A stretch of 64,000 nucleotides of DNA from Mobula hypostoma (taxonomy: Eukaryota), in contig NC_086097.1 of the NCBI RefSeq assembly GCF_963921235.1, positions 42,348,001 to 42,412,000 of the forward strand. The letters are read 5' to 3'. Below, piece by piece: positions 4,418-49,619 of the stretch. How positions within the stretch are numbered: the stretch's first letter is position 1; every line of letters begins with the position of its first letter. A model generated the notes under the pieces. That model was not told the DNA's origin. It saw nothing but the letters and a program-made list of their open reading frames with translations, and did not search any database. The position numbers were made by a program, and so were the translations under genes.

Positions 4418-5960
4418 AAGAAATAGCTGGGTTTTCAGTTATCCAGGACCTCCTCTCTAGCAATTCCCCTCTGCTGCTTTTCGCTATAATATAAAAGTCA
4501 ATAATTGATTGTCAATTTTCCTCAACAAACAGCTCTACAAAGCATCAGTTTTTCCTGAATTTTCGTGATATTTAATGCCTTAATGGGGATTCAGATTTAG
4601 ATTATACGTCAAAACGTAGAGTGAGATACATAACCTGCATGAACAACCAACCAAAGATGTGCTGGTGGCAGCCTGCAAGTTTCACCACACATTCCAATAT
4701 AGCAGGCCCACAATGTTCAGTAGAATACAGGCAGTAATAACAACAAAACAAAATAACAACAGCAAATCAAGCCCCTTTCTCACCCTTCCCACTCACACAA
4801 CAGACTGGCCTCCAACCCCAGGACAGGTTGCTTCCAGGTCTCCAGTCCTTGACTTCAGACTCACAGACATCGGGTCTCCAACTTCAGACCTCACCCACCT
4901 TTAGAGAAGACTTGGGGACATGGTGGCATTATTGTGGTTTTGTCAGAAGAAGGCAGTTTGACTTCAAAAGTACAAAGGAGATAACAACATGAATGTAATC
5001 ACATGAAGTATGGAGGAAGTTTGGAATACTCTCCTTCAAGACATTGTTGAGGCTGGGACAATTGAGAATTTTAATATCAAGGTTGTCAATTAATTATTGG
5101 CCAAGGCTATTGAAGTTAGTAGAACCAAGGTTGAAAGATGTACTGTATGATCTAAATGAAAGAGCAACAGGCTCAGGGAGGTGCAGTATTAGAGCCGCTT
5201 GGGGGCCTAATCCAGCTTGTATTTTCCTATAACAAAAGAGCTAAAGTAACCCAGATTAATTTATAATGGATTCACGGGCTATTTGAAACCCTCCGGCTTG
5301 GAAATTTTGAAAGAAAGTATAAGCTATGGATATAAATAACTAGCACTTTTGGCCATAACTATATAGCAAATTGTGTCATATACCATTTCTTGGAGTATTA
5401 GCATATCAGAGTCACTGCCTTTCCCAGCTAAAGACCAAAAACTAAATACTTAACATGCAAATGTTGGTATTATTCCATATTAGAGTTCAAAGATATAGAA
5501 ATTTTGCCTCACTGCTGCATTTCTCCTCCCAGCTCTGACCTCTAAATGAGCTCAAAGCTCAGCAGTTTCAAAGTTAAATTTGAGCTGTAGCACATCAGAC
5601 AACATCAAATGAAGAAAGTCTTCCTGTGCGTGACAAAATGATAACAGTCCTCATACAGCTATCATTTTTCTAAAACCCATTTGTTTGATTCAGAAAGGTG
5701 GGAGGGGAGGAAAATGCACATCTGACTGGAGAACAGTGGAGTGGGACTGAATCCTGGAGCAGATTTGAATCAGAATCAAAATCAGGTTTAATACTGCCGG
5801 CATATTTAAAAACAGTGATTTTTATAAATGACCTGGATGAGGAAGCAGAAAGGTGGGTTAGTAAGTTTGATGATGACAAAAGTTGGGGATGTTGTGGATA
5901 GTCTGGAGGGTTGGCAGAGGTTACAACGGGACCTCGGTAAGATGCAGAACTGGGCTGAGA

Positions 5961-7753
5961 GTAGATATAGGACTGATAGAAAATGATGCTGGAGAAATTG
6001 TAATGGGAGATAAGGAGATGGCAGAGGAACTGAACGAGTATTTTGCATCAGTCTTCACTGAGGAAGACATCAGCAGTATACCAGACACTCCAGAGTGGCA
6101 GGGAAGAGAAGTGTGCGCAGTCACAATTACGACAGAGAAAGTACTCAGGAAGCTGAATAGTCTAAAGGTAGATAAATCTCCCGGACCAGATGGAATGCAC
6201 TCTCGTGTTCTGAAGGAAGTAACTGTGGAGATTGTGGAGGCATTAGCGACGATCTTCAAAAGTAAATAGATTCTAGCATGGTTCCAGAGGATTGGAAGAT
6301 TGAAAATGTCACTCCGCTATTTAAGAAGGGGGCAAGGAAGCAAAAAGGAAATCATAGATCTGTTAGCTTGACATTGGTGGTTGGGAAGTTGTTGGAGTCT
6401 ATTGTCAAGGATGAGGTTACGGAGTACCTGGAGGCATATGGCAAGATAGGCAGAACTCAGCATGGATTCCTTAAAGGAAAATCCTGCCTGACAAACCTAT
6501 TACAATTTTTTGAGGAAATTGCAAGTAGGCTAGACAAGGGAGATGCAGTGGATGTTGTATATTTGGATATTCAGAAGGCCTTTGACAAGATGCCACACAT
6601 GAGGCTACTTAACAAGATAAGAGCCCATGGAATTACGGGAAAGTTACGTATGTGGATAGGGCGTTGGCTGATTGGCAGGAAGCAGAGAGTGGGAATAAAG
6701 GGATCCTATTCTGGTTGGCTGCCGGTTACCAGTGGTTTTCCACAGGGGTCCATGTTGGGTCCGCTTCTTTTTACATTGTACATCAACAATTTGGATTATG
6801 GAATAGATGGCTTTGTGGCTAAGTTTGCTGATGATACGAAGGTAGGTGGAGGGGCCGGTAGTGCTGAGGAAATGGAGAGTCTGCAGAGAGACTTGGATAG
6901 ATTGGAAGAATGGGTTAAGAAGTGGCAAATGAAATACAATGATGGAAATTGTATGGTTATGCACTTTGGCAGAAGAAATAAATGGGCAGACTATTATTTA
7001 AATAGGGAGAGAATTCAAAGTTCTGAGATGCAACAGGACTTGGGAGTCCTCGTGCAGGATACCCTTAAGGTTAACCTCCAGGTTGAGTCAGTAGTGAAGA
7101 AGGTGAATGCAATGTTGGCATTCATTTCTAGAGGAATAGAGTATAGGAGCAGGGATGTGATGTTGAGGCTCTATAAGGCACTGGTGAAACCTCACTTGGA
7201 GTACTGTGGGCAGTTTTGGTCTCCTTATTTAAGAAAGGATGTGCTGACGTTTGAGAGGGTACAGAAAAGATTCACTAGAATGATTTCGGGAATGAGAGGG
7301 TTAACATGTGAGGAACGTTTGTCCGCTCCTGGACTGTATTCCTTGGAGTTTAGAAGAATGAGGGGGGATCTCATAGAAATATTTTGAATGTTGAAAGGCA
7401 TGGACAGAGTGGATGTGGCAAAGTTGTTTCCCATGATGGGGGAGTCTAGTACGAGAGGGCATGATTTAAGGATTGAAGGGTGCCCATGCAGAACAGAGAT
7501 GCGAAGAAATTTTTTTAGCCAGAGAGTGGTGAATCTATGGAATTTGTTGTCACGGGCGGCAGTGGAGGCCAAGTCATTGGGTGTATTTAAGGCAAAGATT
7601 TATAGGTATCTGAGTAGCCAGGGCATCAAAGATTATGGTGAGAAGGCAGGGGAGTGGGACTAAATGAGAGAATGGATCAGCTCATGATAAAATGGCGGAA
7701 CAGACTCGATGGGCCGAATGGCCAACTTCTGCTCCTTTGTCTTATGGTCTTAT
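5961..7753 (+). mobile_element. Nested CR1 LINE of a second subfamily, (TCTTATGG)n tail
   Basis: ORFs 5883..6269, 6278..7387 and 7388..7663 form the ORF2 RT and C-terminus; 3' UTR and tail end at ~7753. Confidence 0.9.
6278..7663 (+). pseudogene. CR1 ORF2 reverse transcriptase, 5'-truncated, with a premature stop
   Basis: QHGFLKGKSCLTNL, YLDIQKAFDKMPH, PQGSMLGPLLF, KFADDTK; in-frame stop at 7385-7387. Confidence 0.9.
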
Positions 7754-8589
7754 GGAGAAGTGGCAGATGGAGTTCAACACATATAAGTGTGAAGTGGTTT
7801 ATTTCAGTAGGTCAAATTTGAAGAGAGAATATAATATTAATGGTAAGACTCTTGGCAGTGTGGAGGATCAGCGAGATCTTGGGGTCCATGTCCATAGGAC
7901 ACTCAAAGCTGCTGCGCAGGTTGACAGTGTTGTTAAGAAGGCGTATGGTGTGTTGGCCTTCATCAACCGTGGGATTGAGTTCAAGAGCCGTGAGTTAATG
8001 TTACATCTATATAAGACCTTAGTTAAACCCCACTTGGAGTACCATGCTCAGTTCTGGTCACCTCACTACAGGAAAGGTGCTATAGAAAGGGTGCAGAGGA
8101 GATTTACAAGGATGTTGCCTGGATTGGGGAGCATGCCTTATGAGAATAGGTTGAGTGAACTCGGCTTTTTCTCATTGGAGCAACGGAGGATGAGAGGTGA
8201 CCTGATAGAGGTGTATAAGATGATGAGAGGCATTGATCGTGTGGATAGTCAGAGGCTTTTCCCCAGGGCTGAAATGGCTAACACAAGGGGGCATATTTTT
8301 AACGTACTTGGAAGTAGGTACGGGGGGATGTAAGAGGTACGTTTTTCCCACAGAGACTGGTGGTTGCGTGGAATGCACTGCCAGCGACTGTGGTAGAAGC
8401 GGATACGATCGGGTCTTTTAAGAGACTCTTTAGATAGGTACATGGTGCTTAGAAAAATAGAGGCCTGTGCGGTAGGGGAATTCTTGGCACTTTCTAGAGT
8501 AGGTTACATGGTCAACACAACATTGTGGGCCGAAGGGCCTGTAATGTGCTACGTTCTATGATTTCTATGTTCTATGCTCTATGTTCATA

Positions 8590-8945
8590 CTGTACGTCAT
8601 GAAATTTGTTGGCTTTGCAGCAGCAGTATATTGCAATACATAATAATAGAGGAAAAAATGTGCTCCACAGTAAGTATATATAAAATAGTTAAATAAGTAA
8701 TGCAAAATAGAAATAAAAAGGTAGTGATGTAATGCGCATGGGATCAATGTCCTTTCAGAAACCAGATGGCAGAAGGGAAGAAGCTGGTCCTGAATTGTTG
8801 AGTATGTGCCTTCAGGCTTCTGTACTTCCTTCCTGGTGGAAGCAATGAGAACAGGGCATGACTTGGGTATTGGGCTCCTTAATGATGGGCGCTGCCTTTT
8901 CATGGCATCACTCCTCGAAAATGTCCTGGATACTACAGAAACTAG
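8590..8945 (-). mobile_element. Rex1/Babar-like LINE 3' fragment
   Basis: Reverse strand gives the degenerate C-terminus (HPC...LP..RRYRSL...F.TSFFPSAI) followed by an AT-rich 3' UTR. Confidence 0.65.
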
Positions 8946-10261
8946 TGTTTCCCTCACATCCATCTAAAACAGACAAGGAAAGTAACATTTCAGCATCTTT
9001 AACAGCTCAACTGCAGAGACTATTTCCCCAAAGTGAATATTATTTTTCCTTCTTGATTTATGCAACTCGCTTAGCCTGTTGGACAAAAATGAGAAATGTG
9101 ACTGGCTCTTCCACTTATTGTGGGTGTGGGAATAAAATAGATTCATTTATACATGTCATGAAGAGCAGTGTTCTGGAGCAGAGTTCTCCATTTTCTGTCT
9201 TTCATAATTAATGGCCTTGTTCCAAAACAGTCCTCACTCTGCTTGTCTAAAAATGTACCTGGATACCAATGATGCTACTGATTTTAATAGTACGAGTGGA
9301 TCATTTCCCACTTTCTGCAGATTCACTATTATAGCTCACTTGTTGCTAAATGACTTAAATAACATGCCTGTAGAGGATAGACAAAACATATAAAATTTTA
9401 TTTTCATATTGTAGCCGTTACAGAATTATATCCATCATAGACCAGACATTAAAGCAATAGGATTCTTCCTTTACATGCAAGCACACTATACTGCAAGATG
9501 TATGTTTAACAAATTAATTATTCAATTATTGGTACACTACCTTATTTATTTAATCACATCAAATAATTGCTGCAATTGCTGAGCTACACAGGGTGTTTGA
9601 CAGACAACAGTGATCATTCCAGATGCTGGAATTTAGACTATTAATCATACATATTAATCAAGCGCTTGTTGAATCATGGGATTCAGGAGAGATATCTTCC
9701 CAGATGCGCATTACTACAAGTAGGGGAAATTTCTACCGCTGGCTCTACTTCAAGTTCTGATTAGCATGCTGGAGCGGTCGCAGATTAATGAAATCAAAAC
9801 AGAAATATATATGGTTCGGTCAGCACTTTAAAACAGAAAAATACCAAGGGTATGATTCATTTGCATTGCCTAAGCAGTAATCTGGCAGAGCAGATTACAG
9901 AGTCTCAGTGTTTAATACAAATATCACACTTCTACACATAGCTAAATTAAAGTCACTGAATCACAGAATCAGAGAGCATCTGATCCATCGTGCCTGTACC
10001 AGTGCTTTGTAAGCATTATCCAATTAACCCTTCCGCCTTTCTCTTTCCCTGAAGGCCGACAATTTACTTGTGCTTAAGTATTTATACAGTTCTTGAGGGC
10101 CAAGCCGCTGGTTAAACTTTGTCAGCCTGGATTGGCTCAACCGGGTGGCGAATTACCATCAAGTATACGGTCCAAAGAGATTGGCACAGAAACGGGCATC
10201 TCATAGTCCTGAGGGAGGGCAGCAGGTATGGTTGTAAGGACGCTTGCTCGTGACAAAGCAC

Positions 10262-42133: not shown

Positions 42134-43628
42134 AGAACATAGAAATCTACTGCACATCACAGGCCCTTCAGCCCATAATGTTGTGCCGACCATGTAACCT
42201 ACTCTAGAAACTGCCCAGAATTTCCCTCTATTTTTCTAAGCTCCATGTACCTATCTAAGAGACTCTTAAAAGACCCTATTGTATCCACCTCTACCACCTT
42301 CGCTGGCAGTGCATTCCACGCACCCACCACTCTCTGACATCCCTCTTGTACTTACTTCCAAGCACCTTAAAACCATGCCCCCTCGTGTTGGCCATTTCAA
42401 CCCTGGGAAAAAGCCTCTGGCTATCCACACAATCAATTCCTCTCATCATTTAATCTAAATCTTAATCTAATGGGTGTGACTGCCTCCTGAAAGTGTCCAG
42501 GTAACTCTTCCCCTCCCTGATGTATTACAGTGTTTGAAACTCAGATTCCAGGTCATCAGTTTTGAGCCTGAGTTCCTCGAGCAACCAACTCTTGCTGCAG
42601 ACGTGGTTATCAGAAACAACTGTGGGGTCCGCCAGCTCTCACATCATTTGGCTGCAACACATCACCTGATCCTGCATCCATACCTGATTAACCCGCTTAC
42701 ATGTCCCTTTCTGCTATTCACCTGTGGTTACTTGCTGAAACCTCTAGAGCCAAAGCCTCAAACTTCAGACTCCTAAACAATTTTAGCACACAACATAATC
42801 AAATTCTTTGAGTCATACTGTATCATTGCTTTCTTCCAGTTGCAGACATATATGATCCATATCAATAAAATTGACTGTGTTATTTTATTTCCAGTTACCA
42901 GACATATCTTACAATAAGAAATTGATACTGTGCAGAATTTTCACCATTTAAAATGCCCAAGCAAGGTTGTCAGTCTGAAATTTGAGTTCTATTTTTCCTC
43001 TCCATCAGTACTGCCTGCCCTACTGAATATTTTCAATTTTTTTTGGTTTTATCTCAAATTTTTATTAATTATTTCTGACTTGCACATAGCTTCTACCAGA
43101 GGTGCATCAGTGTTCACCATGTCGATAAAACTGAGACAAAAAAAATTAACCTCGTATTCACCCATTTGATTTGTTGTTTGATGTTTAGTAGTCACTCATT
43201 ATAGAGCTGCTTCCTGAGCAATCAACAAATAAATTCTATTGAAACCTGAGTATTTGTATTTCTGTAATATTCTTTAGGTCTGAGGTAATCTGTCCTTTGA
43301 AGCACCTTCAATTACTCCAAAAGACTGAGGTTTGGTAAAATACTGAAAGGCTTTTATTCGCTGTACAATACGACCTCCACAGTGAGTGTCTGCCCCCGGA
43401 CTGAGGGGGAGGGGCAAGGCGAACACCTTTATACAGGACTCTGTGGGAGGAGCCACAGGGGCAGTCAGCAGAGGAGTGTGTCCAGACAGGTAACCGAGTT
43501 ACAACATATATACATGGTTTACCACATTCACCCCTCCTTTTTTTAAAAAGAGTCCCACGGGGTGAAGTGACTGACAATATTTACAAGAAGTATATTTACA
43601 GGTTAAGTCTATCAGGCGGTCGAGTCCG

Positions 43629-45056
43629 TCACTGTGACCTACGTAGCACCGGTGGTGATTGCACCGGCGATGGCGGTTGTGCTGGCTCCGGCCTGACTTC
43701 AGGTGCCAGCACGTTAGGCGTCGGTAATCCCTCGTGCGTGTGCGTCGCGCCCGATATGGGAGTGTTGTGTGGTGTCTGTATAGAGTTTGGAGTGCACGGT
43801 GTCTCGTAGGTACATACATTGGTGGGTACGGGGTCAATAGTCACCACGGAGTGTTCAGGGTAGGGGCCCGGAGCTCCTGCGGGCGCCAGGTCGCGGATGG
43901 AGACCGTGTCCTCCCGCCCATCAGGTAAAACCACGTAGGCATACTGGGGGTTCGCATGAAGTAAGTGAACCCTCTCGACTATCGGGGAGTATTTATTGCT
44001 CCTCGCATGTTTCCGGAGGAGCACTGACCCCGGGGATGTCAGCCAAGATGGTAGGGTGGTCCCAGTGGTCGATTTTCTGGGAAAAGAAAAGAGCCACTCA
44101 TGAGGGGTGGCATTGGTGGCTGTGCATAACAGGGAGCGGATGGAGTGGAGTGCCTCGGGAAGGACCTCCTGCCAGCGGGAGACCGGCAGTCCCTTTGACC
44201 TGAGGGCTAAGAGTGTGGCTTTCCACACTGCGCCATTCTCCTTCTCTACCTGTCCATTCCCCTGGAGATTATAGCTCCTGGTCCTATTGGTTGCAATTCC
44301 CCTAGCCAGTAGATATTGGCACAGCTCGTCACTCATAAACGAGGACCCTCTGTCACTGTGGATATAGCATGGGTATCCGAACAGAGTGAAGAGCTTGCGC
44401 AGGGCTTTTATAACTGACATGGTAGTGGTGTCGGGGCAGGGGCTGGCGAAGGGGAACCGCGAGTACTCGTCGATAACGTTAAGAAAGTACACATTGCGGT
44501 CGGTGGAGGGAAGGGGGCCCTTAAAGTCAACACTCAGTCGCTCAAAGGGGCGGGTGGCCTTGATGAGTGGTGCCTTTTCGGGTCGGTAGAAGTGCGGTTT
44601 GCACCCTGCGCAGACTTGGCAGTCCCTGGTCATCATCCTGATCTCCTCAAGGGAGTAAGGCAGGTTCCGGGCTTTCACGAAGTGGAAAAGCCAGGTGACT
44701 CCCGGGTGGCAAAGGTCTACATGTAGGGCGTATAGCCAGTCGATCTGCACGTTGGCGCATGTTCCCCGGGATAGGGCGTCGGAGGGCTCGTTGAGCTTCC
44801 CAGGCCTGTACATGATGTCATAGTTGTAGGTGGAGAGTTCGATTCTCCACCTCAGAATTTTATCATTTTTGATTTTGCTCCGCTGCTGATTATTAAACAT
44901 GAATGCGACTGAGCGCTGGTCAGTTAGCAGGGTGAACCTTTTGCCGGCAAGATAGTGCCTCCAGTGCCTTATAGCTTCCACTATGGCCTGGGCCTCTTTC
45001 TCTACTGCAGAGTGCCGAATTTCAGGGCCTTGAAGGGTACGGGAGAAGAACGCCAC
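43629..45056 (-). pseudogene. Gypsy RNase H and integrase (HHCC, DDE)
   Basis: EKEAQAIV, FTLLTDQRS, H..LCHPG...CQVC, SVDFKGP, IHSDRGSSF, GNGQVEKEN. Confidence 0.92.
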
Positions 45057-45059
45057 TGG

Positions 45060-45989
45060 TCATCCCGCCTGGTTGAGGGTAGCAGCCAGCGCAAAGTCGG
45101 AGGCGTCACTCTCTACTTGGAAGGGAATGGCCTCATCCACCGCATGCATTGCTGCTTGGCAATGTCCCCTTTTATGCGGTTGAAGGCCGTGTGGGCCTCG
45201 GCAGAGAGGGGGAATGTGGTGGACTTGACCGGGGGCGGGCCTTGTCTGCATAGTTAGAGACCCGTTGGGCGTAATATGAAAAGAAGCCCAGGCACCTTTT
45301 GAGGGCTCTGAGGGTATTGGGAAGAGGGAGTTCCAACAAGGGGCGCATACGGTCGGGGTCAGGGCCAATGACTCCATTCTCCATGACACACCCAAGGACA
45401 GCAAGTCGGGTGGTCCCAAATACACACTTGTCCTTGTTATAGGTGAGGTTGAAAGATATGCCGCTTGGAGAAATTTTTGGAGGTTGTTGTCGTGATCCTG
45501 CTAGTCGTGACCGCAGATGGTGATGTTATCCAGATATGGGAACGTGGCCTTCAGTTGGCACTGGTCCACCATCCGGTCCATTGCCCTCTGGAAGACAAAT
45601 ACACCATTCGTGACACCAAAGGGGACGCACAGGAATTGATAAAGCCTGCCGTCCGCCTCGAAGGCAGTGTAAGGGCGGTCCTCCCGGTGGATGGGGAGCT
45701 GATGGTAAGCGGATTTTAGGTCTATGGTCGAGTACACCTTGTACTGTGCTATCTGATTGACCATATCCGCGATGCGGGATGGAGGGTACGCGTCGAGCTG
45801 CGTGAACCTATTGATGGTCTGGCTATAGTCCACGACCATCCTATTCTTCTCCCCGTTCCGAACAACCACCACCTGGGCCCTCCAAGGACTTGTGCTTGCC
45901 TCAATGACCCCCTCCCTGAGCAGCCGCTGCACCTCCGACTTAATGAAGGCTCTGTCCCCCGCGCTGTACCTCCTGCTTTTAGTTGCCAC
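45060..45989 (-). pseudogene. Gypsy reverse transcriptase and start of RNase H
   Basis: SPWRAQVVVV, RMVVDY, IDLKSAYHQL, TAFEADGRLYQF, PFGVTNG, YLDN, VESDASDFALAATLNQ. Confidence 0.9.
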
Positions 45990-46150
45990 AGGTTTACAGT
46001 TGGGGGTCAGGTTGGCGAACAGCGGTGGGGGAGGGATCTTGAGGGTGGACAGGCCGCAAGTGGTGTCGGTAGTGTGGCAGTTGGCATGATGTTGGGTGGG
46101 ATGCGCGGGTCGGTGTGTGTGTGGTCAGTAGCGGGGTACGTGACATATCT

Positions 46151-47485
46151 CTACAAAACAGGGGATTTATGACAGTAATTGGCGGGAGGGGCCCCCCCAT
46201 CATACTTCATTGTCACGCTTTTCAGGTGGCTCTGGAAGTCGAGCCCCAATAGCACAGGGGCACACAGTTGAGGCAAGACCAGAAATGTAAAGTCCCGATA
46301 TTCTATGCCCTGCACCACTAATGTCGCTACACAACCCCCCCGGATGTCTGTTGTATGCGACCTGGAGGCCATGGTGACCCTCCAACTTACCGGCTGTATC
46401 ATGAGTCCACAATGCTGCACCGTGGCCGGGTGGATAAAACTCTCCGTGCTGCCTGTGTCAAACAGGCAGTTTGTCCTGTGCCCCTCCACCAGGATGTCCA
46501 TCATTGACCTTGCGAGCTGGTGGGGAGCGCTTTGGTCGAGGGTCACAGAAGCCAGGGTGGGGTCGCTGTCTTGGTCCGGCGTGGTGGGGTGCCCCATGAG
46601 CACCCGTTGGTCGTAGGCGGTAGGAGGTGGCGCTGACCAAAATGGCGGCCCCCATGTCTCGCACGTGGTGGCAGTGTGCAGGGAAGATGGCGGCAGGCAA
46701 GATGGCGACCCCCACGTCCCGCACGCGGCGCTGCTCGATCCCGCTCGCGGTTTTGACTTACAGACCTTGGCGAAGTGGCCCTTCTTTCCGCAGCTGGACC
46801 AGGTAGCTTGTCGAGCCGGGCGGCGTTTCCGGGGGTGCTTCTCCAGTCCGCAGAAGTAGCACTTCGCGGACTCACGACTGGCTGCAGCCAAGGTCAATTC
46901 GCCGGCGGGTTGCGGGGTCTGCGGCACCCACGAGGCCATCGGGGGATCGTGTGCCTGGAGAGCCTCAGAGTTATGCAGAGCGGCCTCCAACGTATCAGCC
47001 AGCTCCATCGCCGAACTTGGGGTAAGATAGGCTTTTTCCAACAGCCGCTGGCACACATACACTGACCTGGCCCCCGTGACGAAGGCGCCTCTCACTAGGA
47101 GTTCTGCATGCTGCGCCGCCGTCAGCTCCTGGCAATTTCAGGCCCGCGCGAGTGTCTGTAGGGCCCAGACAAACTCAGCACTCGATTCCCCGGGGCGTTG
47201 TTGCCGTGTCGCTAAACGGTGCCGAGCATAGGCGCTGTTTATCGGCCGCAGGTATTGTCTTTTGAGTGCGTTCATTGCGCCATCATAGTTCGGCTGGCCT
47301 CTGATCAGCGAATAGACCTGTGGACTGACCCTGGAGAGTAGAACTCTGCACTTCGCTACGGGGTCGGTCGCTTTAATCTCCTCTAGATACGCTTCGAAGC
47401 AGGCCAGCCAGAGTTCGAAAGCGTTTCCAGCTTCAGGTGTTTGCGGATTGAGGTCTAATTTTTCTGGTCTCAGGGCCTGTTCCAT
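46151..47485 (-). pseudogene. Gypsy gag (tandem zinc knuckles) and aspartic protease
   Basis: ATG at 47485; RQQRPGES; CYFCGLEKH...CGKKGHFAKVC; LFDTGST; VLLGLDF. Confidence 0.9.
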
Positions 47486-47808
47486 GTTTTAAAACGTACA
47501 GCGAATAAAATGAAGCACCTTCAATTACTACAAAAGACTGAGGTTTGGTAAAATACTGAAAGGCTTTTATTCGCTGTACAATACGACCTCCACAGTGAGT
47601 GTCTGCCCCCGGACTGAGGGGGAGGGGCAAGGCGAACACCTTTATACAAGATTCTGTGGGAGGAGCCACAGGGGCAGTAGGCAGAGGTGTGTGTCCAGAC
47701 AGGTAACCGAGTTACAACATATATACATGGTTTACCACATCCTCCAAACTAACAAGTGGAATCTGTTCCTCGAGATGCCTCTCGATAAGCAGTCATATGG
47801 TTCCGATG

Positions 47809-47877
47809 GAAATGCAGGAAATGCGCAGTCAGATGCTCTTTCAGATTTGGTGTCTGACTGCGCACTTCCCGCATTTC
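47809..47877. repeat. Isolated 28-bp-arm inverted repeat (hairpin)
   Basis: GAAATGCAGGAAATGCGCAGTCAGATGC and GTGTCTGACTGCGCACTTCCCGCATTTC around a 13-nt loop. Confidence 0.8.
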
Positions 47878-49619
47878 TGACCTTCTTTTACTAATTGTTA
47901 AGTTTAAGATATATTCATGTATATGGTATAGTTAGCAAGCATTGTGTCCTTAAGAGCATACTACATAAAGGTGTACAATATCCCAATCGAGCGATAATGA
48001 CTGAAAATAGACTATACCCATCCAAGGTGTTTAGCGAGTAAATCTCTTAACTGAATTCAGGGACAAAGACTGTGAAGTAACGGTGCTTCAGTAAAGGTGC
48101 CCTAACTGACACATGCTATCAATTCCAGCTGTCTCTACACCAGTGCAGGGTGAGGATTGAATTGCAAGAGGTTGCCAAAATCAACAGCCCCATGAAGTTT
48201 GTGTCATAGAGTTGTAGAGCCATACAACACAGACACAGGCCCTAAGGCCTAAATTTTGCATGCCAACCAAGATGCCCATCTGAGGTAGTCCTCAGCCTAT
48301 GGTTAACCCATGTCACTCTAGGCCTTACCTGTCCAAAAGCCTTTTAAATGCTGTTATTGTACCTGCTTCAACCACTTCTCTTTGCATTTCATTCCAGAAT
48401 TTATTTATTTAGAAATACAGCACAGTAACAGGCCCTTCTAGGCCAACGAGTCCGCACTGCCCAATTACGTCCATGTGACTAATCAACCTACTACCCCATA
48501 CATCTTTAGAATGCGGGAGGAAACTGGAACACCCAGAGGAAACCCACACGGTTGCAGTGAGAATGTACAAACTCTGTACAGACATCAGTGGTAATAGTTT
48601 GCTCTTTGTATGAGAAAGCTGTGCCTCAGGATCCAATTAAATCTTTCCAGTCTCTCATTGAACCTGTGCCTTCCAGTTTTTGGTTCCCTAGTTCTGGGGG
48701 CAAAGAGTGTGTGAATTAATCCTATCTGTAGCCTTCATTATTTTATACATCTCCATCAGATCACTGCTTTCTCATATGCTCCAAGGAATAATGTTCTAGC
48801 CTGCCCAACCTCTCCGTGTATCTCAACCCCTCAAGCCTGGCAACACCTTTGCAAATCTTTTCTACTTTTTTTTTTCCAGCTTAATAACAGAGTTTCCAAA
48901 TCTGAACACAATACTCCAAATGCAGACTCACCAATGGCTGTGTACAATGACAGCATAATATCTCCATCGTTATATCAATGGCCTGATTAATGAAGACCAG
49001 CATGCCAGGGGACTATGGACTTACATTCCTAGGTCCTTCCATTCTACAACACTCTCCAGGGCCCTACCATTCATTGTGAAAGTCCAACTCTCCTTTGACT
49101 TCCCAAAATGCAACACCTTGCACTTAACCATTCCTCAGACTACTTATCCAACTGATCAAGATCCCACTGTAATTCTTGATAACCCAGCAGCATAATGGTG
49201 AACGTCACACTATTACTGAGCCAAGAACCTGAGTTCAGTTCCGCCACTGTCTGGAAGGGGTTTGTACGTTCTCCCCGTGACCATGTGGGGTTTCCTCAGG
49301 TGTTCAAGTTTCCTCCTGCATTCAAAAGCCACACTGGTTAGTAGGTTAATTGGTCACATGGGTGGAATTGGATGGCGTGGGCTCGTTGGGTTCAAGGGGC
49401 CTGTTACTGTGCTCTCTAAGTGGTAAAGAAAACTGCACACTGATTCAACTTAAAGATTTCTGTAAATTCTCCCATGTCGTCATTTGCGGCAGCAGAAGAG
49501 AGTTGCTAATGCTTTCCATTCATTCCTTTTGTTTTGGCCAAAAAGAACTAAGAAAACCCCTGACTTTCAAACTTCAAAGAAAATTTACTATCAAGGTACA
49601 TACATGTGCTTTCCCAGTG

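Follow-up and report, generated by a model that had tools for sequence, protein, structure and literature searches.

A putative self-priming site in a Gypsy-type LTR retrotransposon of Mobula hypostoma and its conservation by compensatory change in animal relatives

The stretch of Mobula hypostoma DNA analyzed here, 64,000 nucleotides (nt) of contig NC_086097.1 (RefSeq assembly GCF_963921235.1, forward-strand positions 42,348,001 to 42,412,000; hereinafter the window, with coordinates counted from its first base), carries on the minus strand one decayed copy of a Gypsy-type long terminal repeat (LTR) retrotransposon that spans 4,442 base pairs (bp; 43298-47739). The 15 nt that directly follow the 5' LTR of this copy are the exact complement of a segment inside the LTR itself, and an equivalent complementarity recurs, with compensatory changes, in the relatives of the element. 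Given these features, the 15-mer is very probably the primer-binding site (PBS) of a self-priming retrotransposon, that is, one that initiates reverse transcription on its own RNA.

Read along the minus strand, the 5' LTR ends with ...GGTGCTTCA at 47511 and is followed by TTTTATTCGCTGTAC (47510-47496), then by 10 nt, GTTTTAAAAC (47495-47486), and then by the gag ATG (47485-47483). The site, which we annotate as a putative PBS of the self-primer type (47496-47510, minus strand) on the strength of the repeat search, the family copies and the covariation in relatives, pairs with the segment GTACAGCGAATAAAA of the 5' LTR (47565-47579, minus strand), the putative self-primer, which was delineated from the inverted repeat, pattern counts and covariation. 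The two arms are 15 nt long, 100% complementary and 54 nt apart, as determined by the repeat search. The segment includes the hexamer AATAAA (47571-47566), and its last base, 47565, is one A past this hexamer. The same GTACAGCGAATAAAA segment, identified by the inverted repeat and pattern counts, is present in the 3' LTR (43352-43366, minus strand), where its AATAAA would serve polyadenylation. The distance between the LTR and the ATG is just 25-26 nt, leaving no room for a tRNA site, and the only TGG between the LTR and the open reading frame (ORF) is that of the start-codon ATGG. Thus, the copy combines the two marks of a site of the self-primed type, namely the absence of a tRNA complement and a post-LTR sequence complementary to its own LTR. 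An earlier note on this DNA had described this layout, the exact reverse complements in both LTRs and the lack of a TGG-type PBS; the first two are reproduced by the window coordinates and the inverted-repeat listing, and the third extends to the other copies of the family, as described next.

We parsed 31 other copies of the element (a further locus, L004, was left out), and in all 31 the 15-mer is present, preceded by one spacer A after ...TTCA; none carries a TGG site. The spacer is lost in the window copy and is also found in copies from two other organisms, among the contigs of four sequencing runs (X1, X2, X9 and X13). Because the 31 copies share the spacer A, the normal geometry of the family is LTR-CA, one nucleotide and then the PBS, as in ordinary LTR elements. 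The earlier claim that the 3' A of the segment sits exactly against the U5 boundary accordingly holds for the register of the window copy and has to be amended by one nucleotide for the family at large. Of the 31 copies, 22 have retained both arms without change; nine have ordinary substitutions in either arm or in both, and the absence of compensatory changes among these agrees with decay after insertion. The family is abundant: with a DNA query, at least 2,194 first-look candidates were obtained, of which 40 were scored, and the 39 non-window copies among these are 97-98% identical; with an integrase query, the numbers were at least 20,101 candidates and 99 scored, with 91-94% identity for the 98 non-window copies.

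That the complementarity is a chance inverted repeat, or a functionless by-product of rearrangement in one copy, is so improbable that it can be given practically no weight. Short inverted repeats are common, and 2.2% of the control windows described below contain one that reaches 11 nt. However, the 15-mer, with at most one mismatch, occurs three times in the window compared to 0.01 occurrences expected from shuffles (0 of 100 shuffles reach three), is found in 31 of the 31 other parsed copies, and has counterparts with compensatory changes in 29 of 33 related loci. Chance is already refuted by these counts.

The copies inside the family are too alike to judge function, and therefore we examined relatives. 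Of 7,999 candidates scored in a protein search with the polyprotein of a natural open copy from the same genome, 1,101 had E <= 0.001. Among the matches listed, the closest named relatives are predicted ray and shark proteins (78-94% identity), followed, at 58-66% identity, by proteins from a sea anemone, a nematode assembly and metagenome contigs of ~4 kb. Three relatives with 60-66% identity (P0003, P0016 and P0051) are filed under a parasitic nematode and under bins labeled 'Rhizobiales bacterium' and 'bacterium'; the bacterial labels almost certainly reflect mis-binned animal contigs. To obtain the DNA of metagenomic relatives, we used an alignment of 14 proteins as the query and retained the best 80 of 545 relative-encoding stretches, which gave 79 loci (designated, like the other loci here, by L and a number). 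The 33 metagenome loci that include the gag start and enough upstream DNA, with best tblastn segments 38-64% identical to the query, were scanned for inverted repeats; L045 and L106 have too little upstream DNA and stand outside the scan.

In 29 of these 33 loci, the post-LTR site and the LTR interior share a perfect inverted repeat that is 11-19 nt long, so that the earlier expectation of conserved complementarity in related families is borne out. In 1,320 control windows taken inside the same elements, the modal length of the longest repeat is 7 nt, and 29 windows (2.2%) reach 11 nt. In L045 and L046, the pair is present in permuted contig ends. We then aligned the last 12 nt of the primer and the first 12 nt of the site in 19 representatives that comprise 18 different primer 12-mers. 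In the resulting 12-bp helix, 225 of the 228 cells pair, and changes on both sides are seen in 10 of the 12 pairs; compensatory conservation thus extends over at least 18 primer sequences. There are 54 doubly changed cells compared to 12.9 +/- 2.7 in shuffles, and none of 500 shuffles reaches 54. When the partner is shifted by 1-3 columns, pairing drops to 28-48%. A single compensated pair (G:C vs U:A) distinguishes L065 from L067, which are otherwise near-identical. Such compensatory pairing, in register with the U5 boundary, is expected of self-primed elements. It also excludes a host RNA as the primer, because a host RNA could not co-vary with the LTR of each family; the 3' end of a cellular RNA, which the earlier note had named as an alternative source of the primer, is thus dismissed. 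Altogether, the family copies and the covariation support the proposal of tRNA-independent priming in its main points, and none of the contrary findings anticipated in the earlier note came up.

We propose that, in the genomic RNA, the element's own R segment (GUACAGCGAAUAAAA) would fold back over a loop of ~55 nt, consisting of the remainder of R and U5, and would pair with the post-LTR site. The RNA would then be cut right after the last A, presumably by the RNase H of the element, and the new 3'-OH would prime the minus-strand DNA, the first templated bases being the spacer A and the end of U5, followed by the remainder of R. The geometry of the duplex points to cleavage directly after AAUAAAA in the Mobula family. 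Under this scheme, the LTR would end exactly at this boundary because the minus-strand DNA would start at the spacer A or the end of U5. Given that the right end of an LTR is set by the start of the minus strand, and that the 3' end of the duplex lies one base away in every family, a primer-template duplex appears to be the best reading of the complementarity. The ~19 nt (GCC...) between the predicted cut and the probable poly(A) site near 47546 would constitute the effective R for the first strand transfer; in a genome pattern search for poly(A)-tailed retrocopies, which were sought to map the poly(A) site, there were 0 matches.

The anatomy of the region is closely similar among the 19 representatives. 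The 3' bases of the primer segment are AAA in 18 of them, GCC or ACC directly follows the primer in 18 of them, and this AAA|RCC junction is the invariant element of the arrangement. The loop measures 31-66 nt and in 17 of the 19 terminates with ...CAA (the CA of the LTR plus the spacer A), after which the site starts with TTT. The leader of the window copy (47615-47470) has a minimum-energy fold of -48.6 kcal/mol (z = -4.68), and none of 200 shuffles is as stable. In this fold, the primer:PBS helix is predicted to be stacked on a stem, the 5' arm of which is GCCUUUCAGU (47555-47564, minus strand), with the 3' arm at the end of U5 (47514-47525, minus strand). Minimum-energy folds predict such a stem, opened by RCC and stacked directly on the primer:site helix, in 16 of the 19 representatives.

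This structure could conceivably be a regulatory or structural hairpin and nothing else, with a role in poly(A) masking, packaging or translation control, in which case the element would employ another, unrecognized primer. Several features are compatible with this possibility, which we nevertheless consider very unlikely. An AATAAA or ATTAAA hexamer lies within the last 12 nt of the paired segment in 12 of the 19 representatives (in L085, a canonical hexamer is found in the 3' LTR copy of the segment as well). Furthermore, the PBS arm is present only after the 5' LTR, so the helix would conceal the signal near the 5' end of the RNA but leave the 3' copy accessible, and, in the relatives, the 3' edge of the helix is located 0-40 nt before the start codon, overlapping it in L038 and L039. 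However, in all families, the 3' end of the segment pairs at the U5 boundary, give or take the 1-nt spacer, a register that a mere hairpin does not need. No other candidate primer site is found in the 25-26 nt before the ATG, and 7 of the 19 representatives lack a canonical hexamer in the segment, three of these having one in the loop instead. The integrated palindromic units described below, moreover, indicate that a DNA end paired at this place was extended. Because the hexamer is in the segment in 12 of the 19 representatives only, the overlap with the poly(A) signal is frequent but not universal. Masking of this signal, which the earlier note had considered as an additional or alternative role, therefore does not hold as a general function, but may well be a second function in some families.

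A further line of evidence comes from what appear to be DNA fossils of replication in the M. hypostoma genome. We searched this genome for a pattern in which the LTR end, the A and the PBS lead into the inverted (reverse-complement) sequence of the LTR part that lies upstream of the segment, and obtained 37 exact matches, or 55 with up to three mismatches, compared to 0 for reversed control patterns. In 39 of the 43 unique loci in the resulting census, the inverted part ends at LTR positions 1-18. Twenty of the 43 are complete palindromic units, composed of a forward LTR (1-229), the A, the site and an inverted LTR (160-1); they are flanked by 5-bp target duplications that match in 5/5 positions in 14 units, in 4/5 in three and in <=2/5 in the remaining three. 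Eight further loci continue into an inverted polypurine tract, and eight have a truncated or unplaced forward LTR. The palindromic units are found among the own-genome loci L113-L180 (for example, L113, L115-L117, L130 and L151).

We read the palindromic units as integrated fold-back (snap-back) strong-stop DNA. The 3' end of plus-strand strong-stop DNA, which consists of the site, would fold back on its own R segment and be extended to the start of the LTR; the product would then be made double-stranded and integrated through its two U3 ends. If so, the units record the extension in vivo of a DNA end paired at precisely this duplex, followed by integration. Units of this kind would be peculiar to this type of element because its site is complementary to its own LTR. 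We have met no published description of palindromic LTR insertions, although no literature search was aimed at them. Some other junctions of the PBS were noticed in the same set of loci. In L123, L124, L168 and L169, the PBS (…GTAC) runs into the antisense protease region at a common junction, which probably arose either from the copying of a single rearranged variant or from recurrent mispriming at the GTAC palindrome. In L166, the PBS is joined straight to forward RT-coding sequence (an internal deletion derivative), and in L167, it is joined to unrelated DNA.

Where the RNA starts determines whether the primer is its very 5' end or an internal piece. Upstream of the segment, the 5' LTR contains a putative TATA box, TATAAAGG (47639-47646, minus strand), the first T of which is 67 nt upstream of the start of the segment, and an initiator (Inr)-like TCAGTCC (47611-47617, minus strand), which would place the transcription start at A 47615, 31 nt past the TATA T. 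Each of these motifs is kept in 30 of the 31 other parsed copies, and the spacing of 31 nt puts the segment at about +36 to +51. Three rearranged copies have a bearing on this estimate. In these, the inverted copy of R stops at LTR 126 (L114 and L156) or LTR 124 (L131), corresponding to window positions 47614, 47614 and 47616, respectively, LTR 125 being the A of the Inr; across the 43 junction loci, no inverted part ends at LTR 19-120 or 127-160. Past the stop, L114 jumps to the forward protease region and L131 to antisense gag, whereas in L156, there are three extra bases and then host DNA in which the left-flank sequence (ACCCC) is repeated.

These three copies are most simply explained by a DNA strand that was paired at the site and, during its extension, copied a template with an end at about LTR 125-126; this end would be the 5' end of the RNA. 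The fossil endpoints at about LTR 125 agree with the start predicted by the promoter motifs. Taken together, these observations make it probable that the primer is internal to the leader, with the RNA starting ~35 nt upstream of the segment and the primer bearing a 5' flap. The earlier suggestion that the segment is probably not the RNA 5' end is in line with both the TATA/Inr spacing and the three endpoints. A genome pattern search for copies truncated exactly at LTR 126 gave 1 match, which is an internal duplication. Contig ends of relatives were also considered as proxies for RNA ends and were rejected as assembly breaks.

The principal alternative is ordinary self-priming of the Tf1 type, in which the transcript would start at or next to 47579, the primer would be the RNA 5' end and TATAAAGG would not be a working promoter element. 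In the available text of the two sources, this is the sole experimentally established form of self-priming (PMC4600332, PMC5341516), and it avoids a 5' flap that would be copied into plus-strand strong-stop DNA. It would also fit the sharp end of the complementarity beyond 15 nt in all copies, and most relatives lack a TATA at a fixed distance upstream of the presumed earlier start. One contig, L057, starts 2 nt before its segment, which counts little because contig ends are not RNA ends. All the same, we regard a Tf1-type start as unlikely. Neither a TATA nor an Inr is found ~30 nt upstream of 47579, whereas the canonical pair kept in 30 of the 31 other parsed copies predicts 47615; and in the three rearranged copies, the inverted R runs 34-36 nt past the segment to stop at LTR 124-126, which requires a longer template ending there.

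Several points weigh against self-priming from an internal segment as reconstructed here. The proportion of paired cells in the covariation helix (98.7%) is partly circular, since only rows with the repeat were selected; this circularity does not extend to the sequence diversity or to the fixed register. The scan missed some loci: L037 and L098 have no resolved pair, L094 has a repeat of only 9 nt, albeit in the same register, and in L043, the pair is split across contig ends and is visible by eye only. The census of 43 unique junction loci leaves out 10 of the 55 matches. The assignment of the cleavage, and of the enzyme responsible, is by analogy with Tf1, and the evidence as a whole consists of DNA sequences and contigs, where the starts and ends of RNA cannot show. 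The transcription start is placed by promoter motifs and three rearranged copies; in a fourth copy, L129, an apparent endpoint at LTR 121 was rejected because the inverted LTR resumes further on. Among the relatives, we found no TATA or Inr at a fixed distance, so the internal position of the primer is shown weakly and for this one family. Finally, plus-strand strong-stop DNA would include a copy of the 35-nt 5' flap, which would impede the second transfer. Considering this problem, the three rearranged copies may be such dead ends, and normal replication would have to trim or avoid the flap, which calls for an extra step.

The remaining features of the window copy (43298-47739, minus strand), which was delimited by its LTR pair, the TGTGG...GCTTCA termini and a flanking 5-bp duplication, are those of a Ty3/Gypsy element. 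The 5' LTR (47511-47739) and the 3' LTR (43298-43526), both on the minus strand and identified by the repeat search and target-site duplications, are 229 nt long, run from TG to CA and are 97% identical. Four copies with target-site duplications served to fix the limits of the LTR: in three copies other than that of the window, the 5 bp are repeated perfectly (ACCTG, AAGGT and CCAAG), whereas in the window copy, GAGGA (left copy, 47740-47744, minus strand) and AAGGA (right copy, 43293-43297, minus strand) match in 4/5 positions. The polypurine tract AAAAAAAGGAGGGGTGAA (43527-43544, minus strand) abuts the 3' LTR; in relatives, ...GGGG(T/A)GAA precedes the TG. The gag-pol start codon (47483-47485, minus strand), 10 nt past the PBS, was taken from the ORF listing and is where the intact frames of other copies open.

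The coding region (43629-47485, minus strand) falls into five pieces and encodes, by Pfam, a CCHC gag, protease, reverse transcriptase (RT), RNase H and integrase, an order typical of Ty3/Gypsy elements; the TG...CA LTRs, the polypurine tract and the short target duplication are also among the structural marks of this group. The matches in the window copy are gag-asp_proteas, RVT_1, RT_RNaseH_2 (weak) and rve, and the pieces lie in the same order as in the open copy. Three in-frame stops (47138-47140, 45501-45503, 45060-45062) and a frame change located between 46124 and 46153 interrupt its frame. Elsewhere in the genome, copies occur with an uninterrupted single frame of ~1,290-1,300 codons that begins with the ATG after the site. 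The 1,301-aa polyprotein of the natural open copy matches gag-asp_proteas (340-427), RVT_1 (556-710), RT_RNaseH (798-897) and rve (988-1084), with a weak zf-CCHC, whereas Pfam detected no match to Retrotrans_gag in its gag.

Over part of U3 in the 5' LTR (47613-47705), the summed contig depth rises to 241,127 in runs X9 and X13 (other organisms), far above the rest of the element; a core of U3 is probably common to another, much more abundant repeat. Just beyond the 5' end of the element, there is a 25-nt inverted repeat, 92% complementary with a 19-nt loop (47809-47877). An Rfam search of 47300-47900 yielded no match in the LTR/PBS region and only sub-threshold matches on this outside hairpin, including mir-3926 with 31 bits compared to a gathering score of 82. 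The adjoining DNA also contains inverted repeat arms of 166 nt (48419-48584 and 49248-49413), 75% complementary and 663 nt apart.

So far, self-priming has been regarded as special to Tf1 and related chromoviruses, together with a few plant lineages for which it is predicted, and animal Gypsy elements are assumed to be primed by tRNA as a rule. The signature of self-priming is borne here by an entire animal clade, one family of which numbers thousands of copies in a single vertebrate genome. The proposed mechanism is a variant of a known one, in an unexpected and widespread animal clade, with a primer that is possibly internal and with a readable fossil record of replication intermediates. Three features are unreported for Tf1: the probable location of the primer inside the leader, the invariant AAA|RCC at the presumed cut site and the coincidence of the primer with the poly(A) hexamer. 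Using genome sequence alone, replication intermediates can be read from palindromic LTR units and from copies with a stop at the presumed 5' end of the RNA, and such fossil copies make the extent of the primer testable without an active element. If our interpretation is true, fold-back palindromes would represent a previously unnoticed class of LTR-derived insertions. Annotation pipelines that demand a tRNA site will miss or mislabel elements of this kind, and host defenses that act through the pairing of tRNA fragments to the PBS would not see them. One Steamer-like element was published with a 'putative Asn tRNA' site (PMC11046912).

More speculatively, these observations could be combined into a single scenario, which we advance as a tentative proposal that has somewhat less in its favor than against it. 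Under this scenario, a metazoan-wide, chromodomain-less Gypsy clade resembling Mag and its C-clade primes with an internal piece of leader RNA that is freed by a cut at UAAA|RCC beside the stacked hairpin; in most families, the primer:PBS helix also hides the poly(A) hexamer near the promoter, solving both priming and the choice between the 5' and 3' poly(A) signals; and fold-back LTR palindromes are regularly made and integrated.

The closest parallel to the proposed mechanism is that of Tf1, the primer of which reportedly comprises the first 11 nt of the transcript, and which is said to form a U5-IR-like stem, in work attributed to Levin and to Lin and Levin. As in Tf1, Tf2 and Tj1, there is no tRNA site in the elements described here, and the site immediately behind the 5' LTR pairs with a sequence in the R of the same element. 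Tf1 needs extra stems beside the duplex, and a stacked stem is predicted here. In contrast, the duplex is 12-19 bp long, compared to 11 in Tf1; the segment is probably located ~35 nt inside the RNA, whereas that of Tf1 is at the RNA 5' end; it ends with AAA followed by RCC and, in most families, holds a poly(A) hexamer; and the elements have no chromodomain and no Retrotrans_gag match and come from animal hosts. As far as the available text of the two sources goes, self-priming is established for Tf1 and Tf2 of Schizosaccharomyces pombe and inferred for Tj1 of S. japonicus, and, in Tf1, the minus-strand DNA is primed by the 5' piece that results from an RNA cut at the 3' edge of the duplex (PMC4600332, PMC5341516).

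Beyond fission yeasts, the accessible portions of two accounts describe self-priming as common to the Tf1/sushi group, from fungi to vertebrates, and as predicted for the plant elements Tcn1 (Gypsy) and TAR (copia) (PMC4600332, PMC6317226), and a 2013 analysis of LTRs mentions it only for 'some chromoviruses' (PMC3601003). In Tf1/sushi, Tcn1 and TAR, as here, the prediction is derived from complementarity between the PBS position and the LTR. The Gypsy lineages among these (Tf1/sushi and Tcn1), however, are chromoviruses, whereas the present clade lacks a chromodomain: PF00385 had no match at E <= 0.1 in the 1,301-aa polyprotein and is absent from the precomputed domains of the 120 relatives listed. 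This absence fits a place outside the Tf1/sushi group; the earlier note had called the proteins Mag-like.

In element size, LTR length and termini, single-frame layout and host range, the clade instead resembles the C-clade of Mag elements, such as SURL and Steamer, and we denote it Mag/C-clade-like in this sense. These elements, too, are compact (4-5 kb), with a single gag-pol frame and LTRs that measure 150-230 nt; the 3' termini of the LTRs found here, for example ...ACAACA, are similar to the C motif AYANAACA (PMC3601003, Table 3); and, in the portions available of two reports, the hosts are aquatic animals of many phyla (PMC8905726, PMC6238403). The difference lies in the priming site. 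Steamer, according to the accessible part of its description, has a 12-nt tRNA-Leu site, TGGTGTCAGAAG, right after the LTR (PMC8905726), and insect Mag elements use tRNA-Leu or tRNA-Ser (PMC3286476), whereas the elements described here contain no TGG site and have a self-complementary site in its place. In the literature that we searched, which does not include some older key papers, there is no description of self-priming in Mag, SURL, Steamer or fish, cnidarian and elasmobranch elements, or of an overlap with the poly(A) signal. A different LTR element was noticed at L042:5094-12696, with 363-nt LTRs that are 94.6% identical, a tRNA-type site (TGGTGGCAGCG...) and a Gmr1-like order of domains; it carries a nested insertion of one of the self-priming families at 5798-9839. 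This outer element was considered as a tRNA-primed close outgroup and rejected, its RT being only 35% identical and an integrase-like C-terminal module preceding the RT.

The fossil copies, finally, have a counterpart in retroviruses, where by-products of strong-stop DNA synthesis include over-extended plus-strand strong-stop DNA and products of fold-back self-priming. Mis-extended plus-strand strong-stop DNA is what both the LTR-PBS-inverted-LTR units and the three copies with a stop at LTR 124-126 resemble; the template for mis-extension here would be either the element's own R segment or the primer or genomic RNA up to its 5' end. Unlike the retroviral by-products, however, the fold-back appears to be built into the present elements, because the PBS is complementary to R, and the products are integrated with 5-bp duplications.

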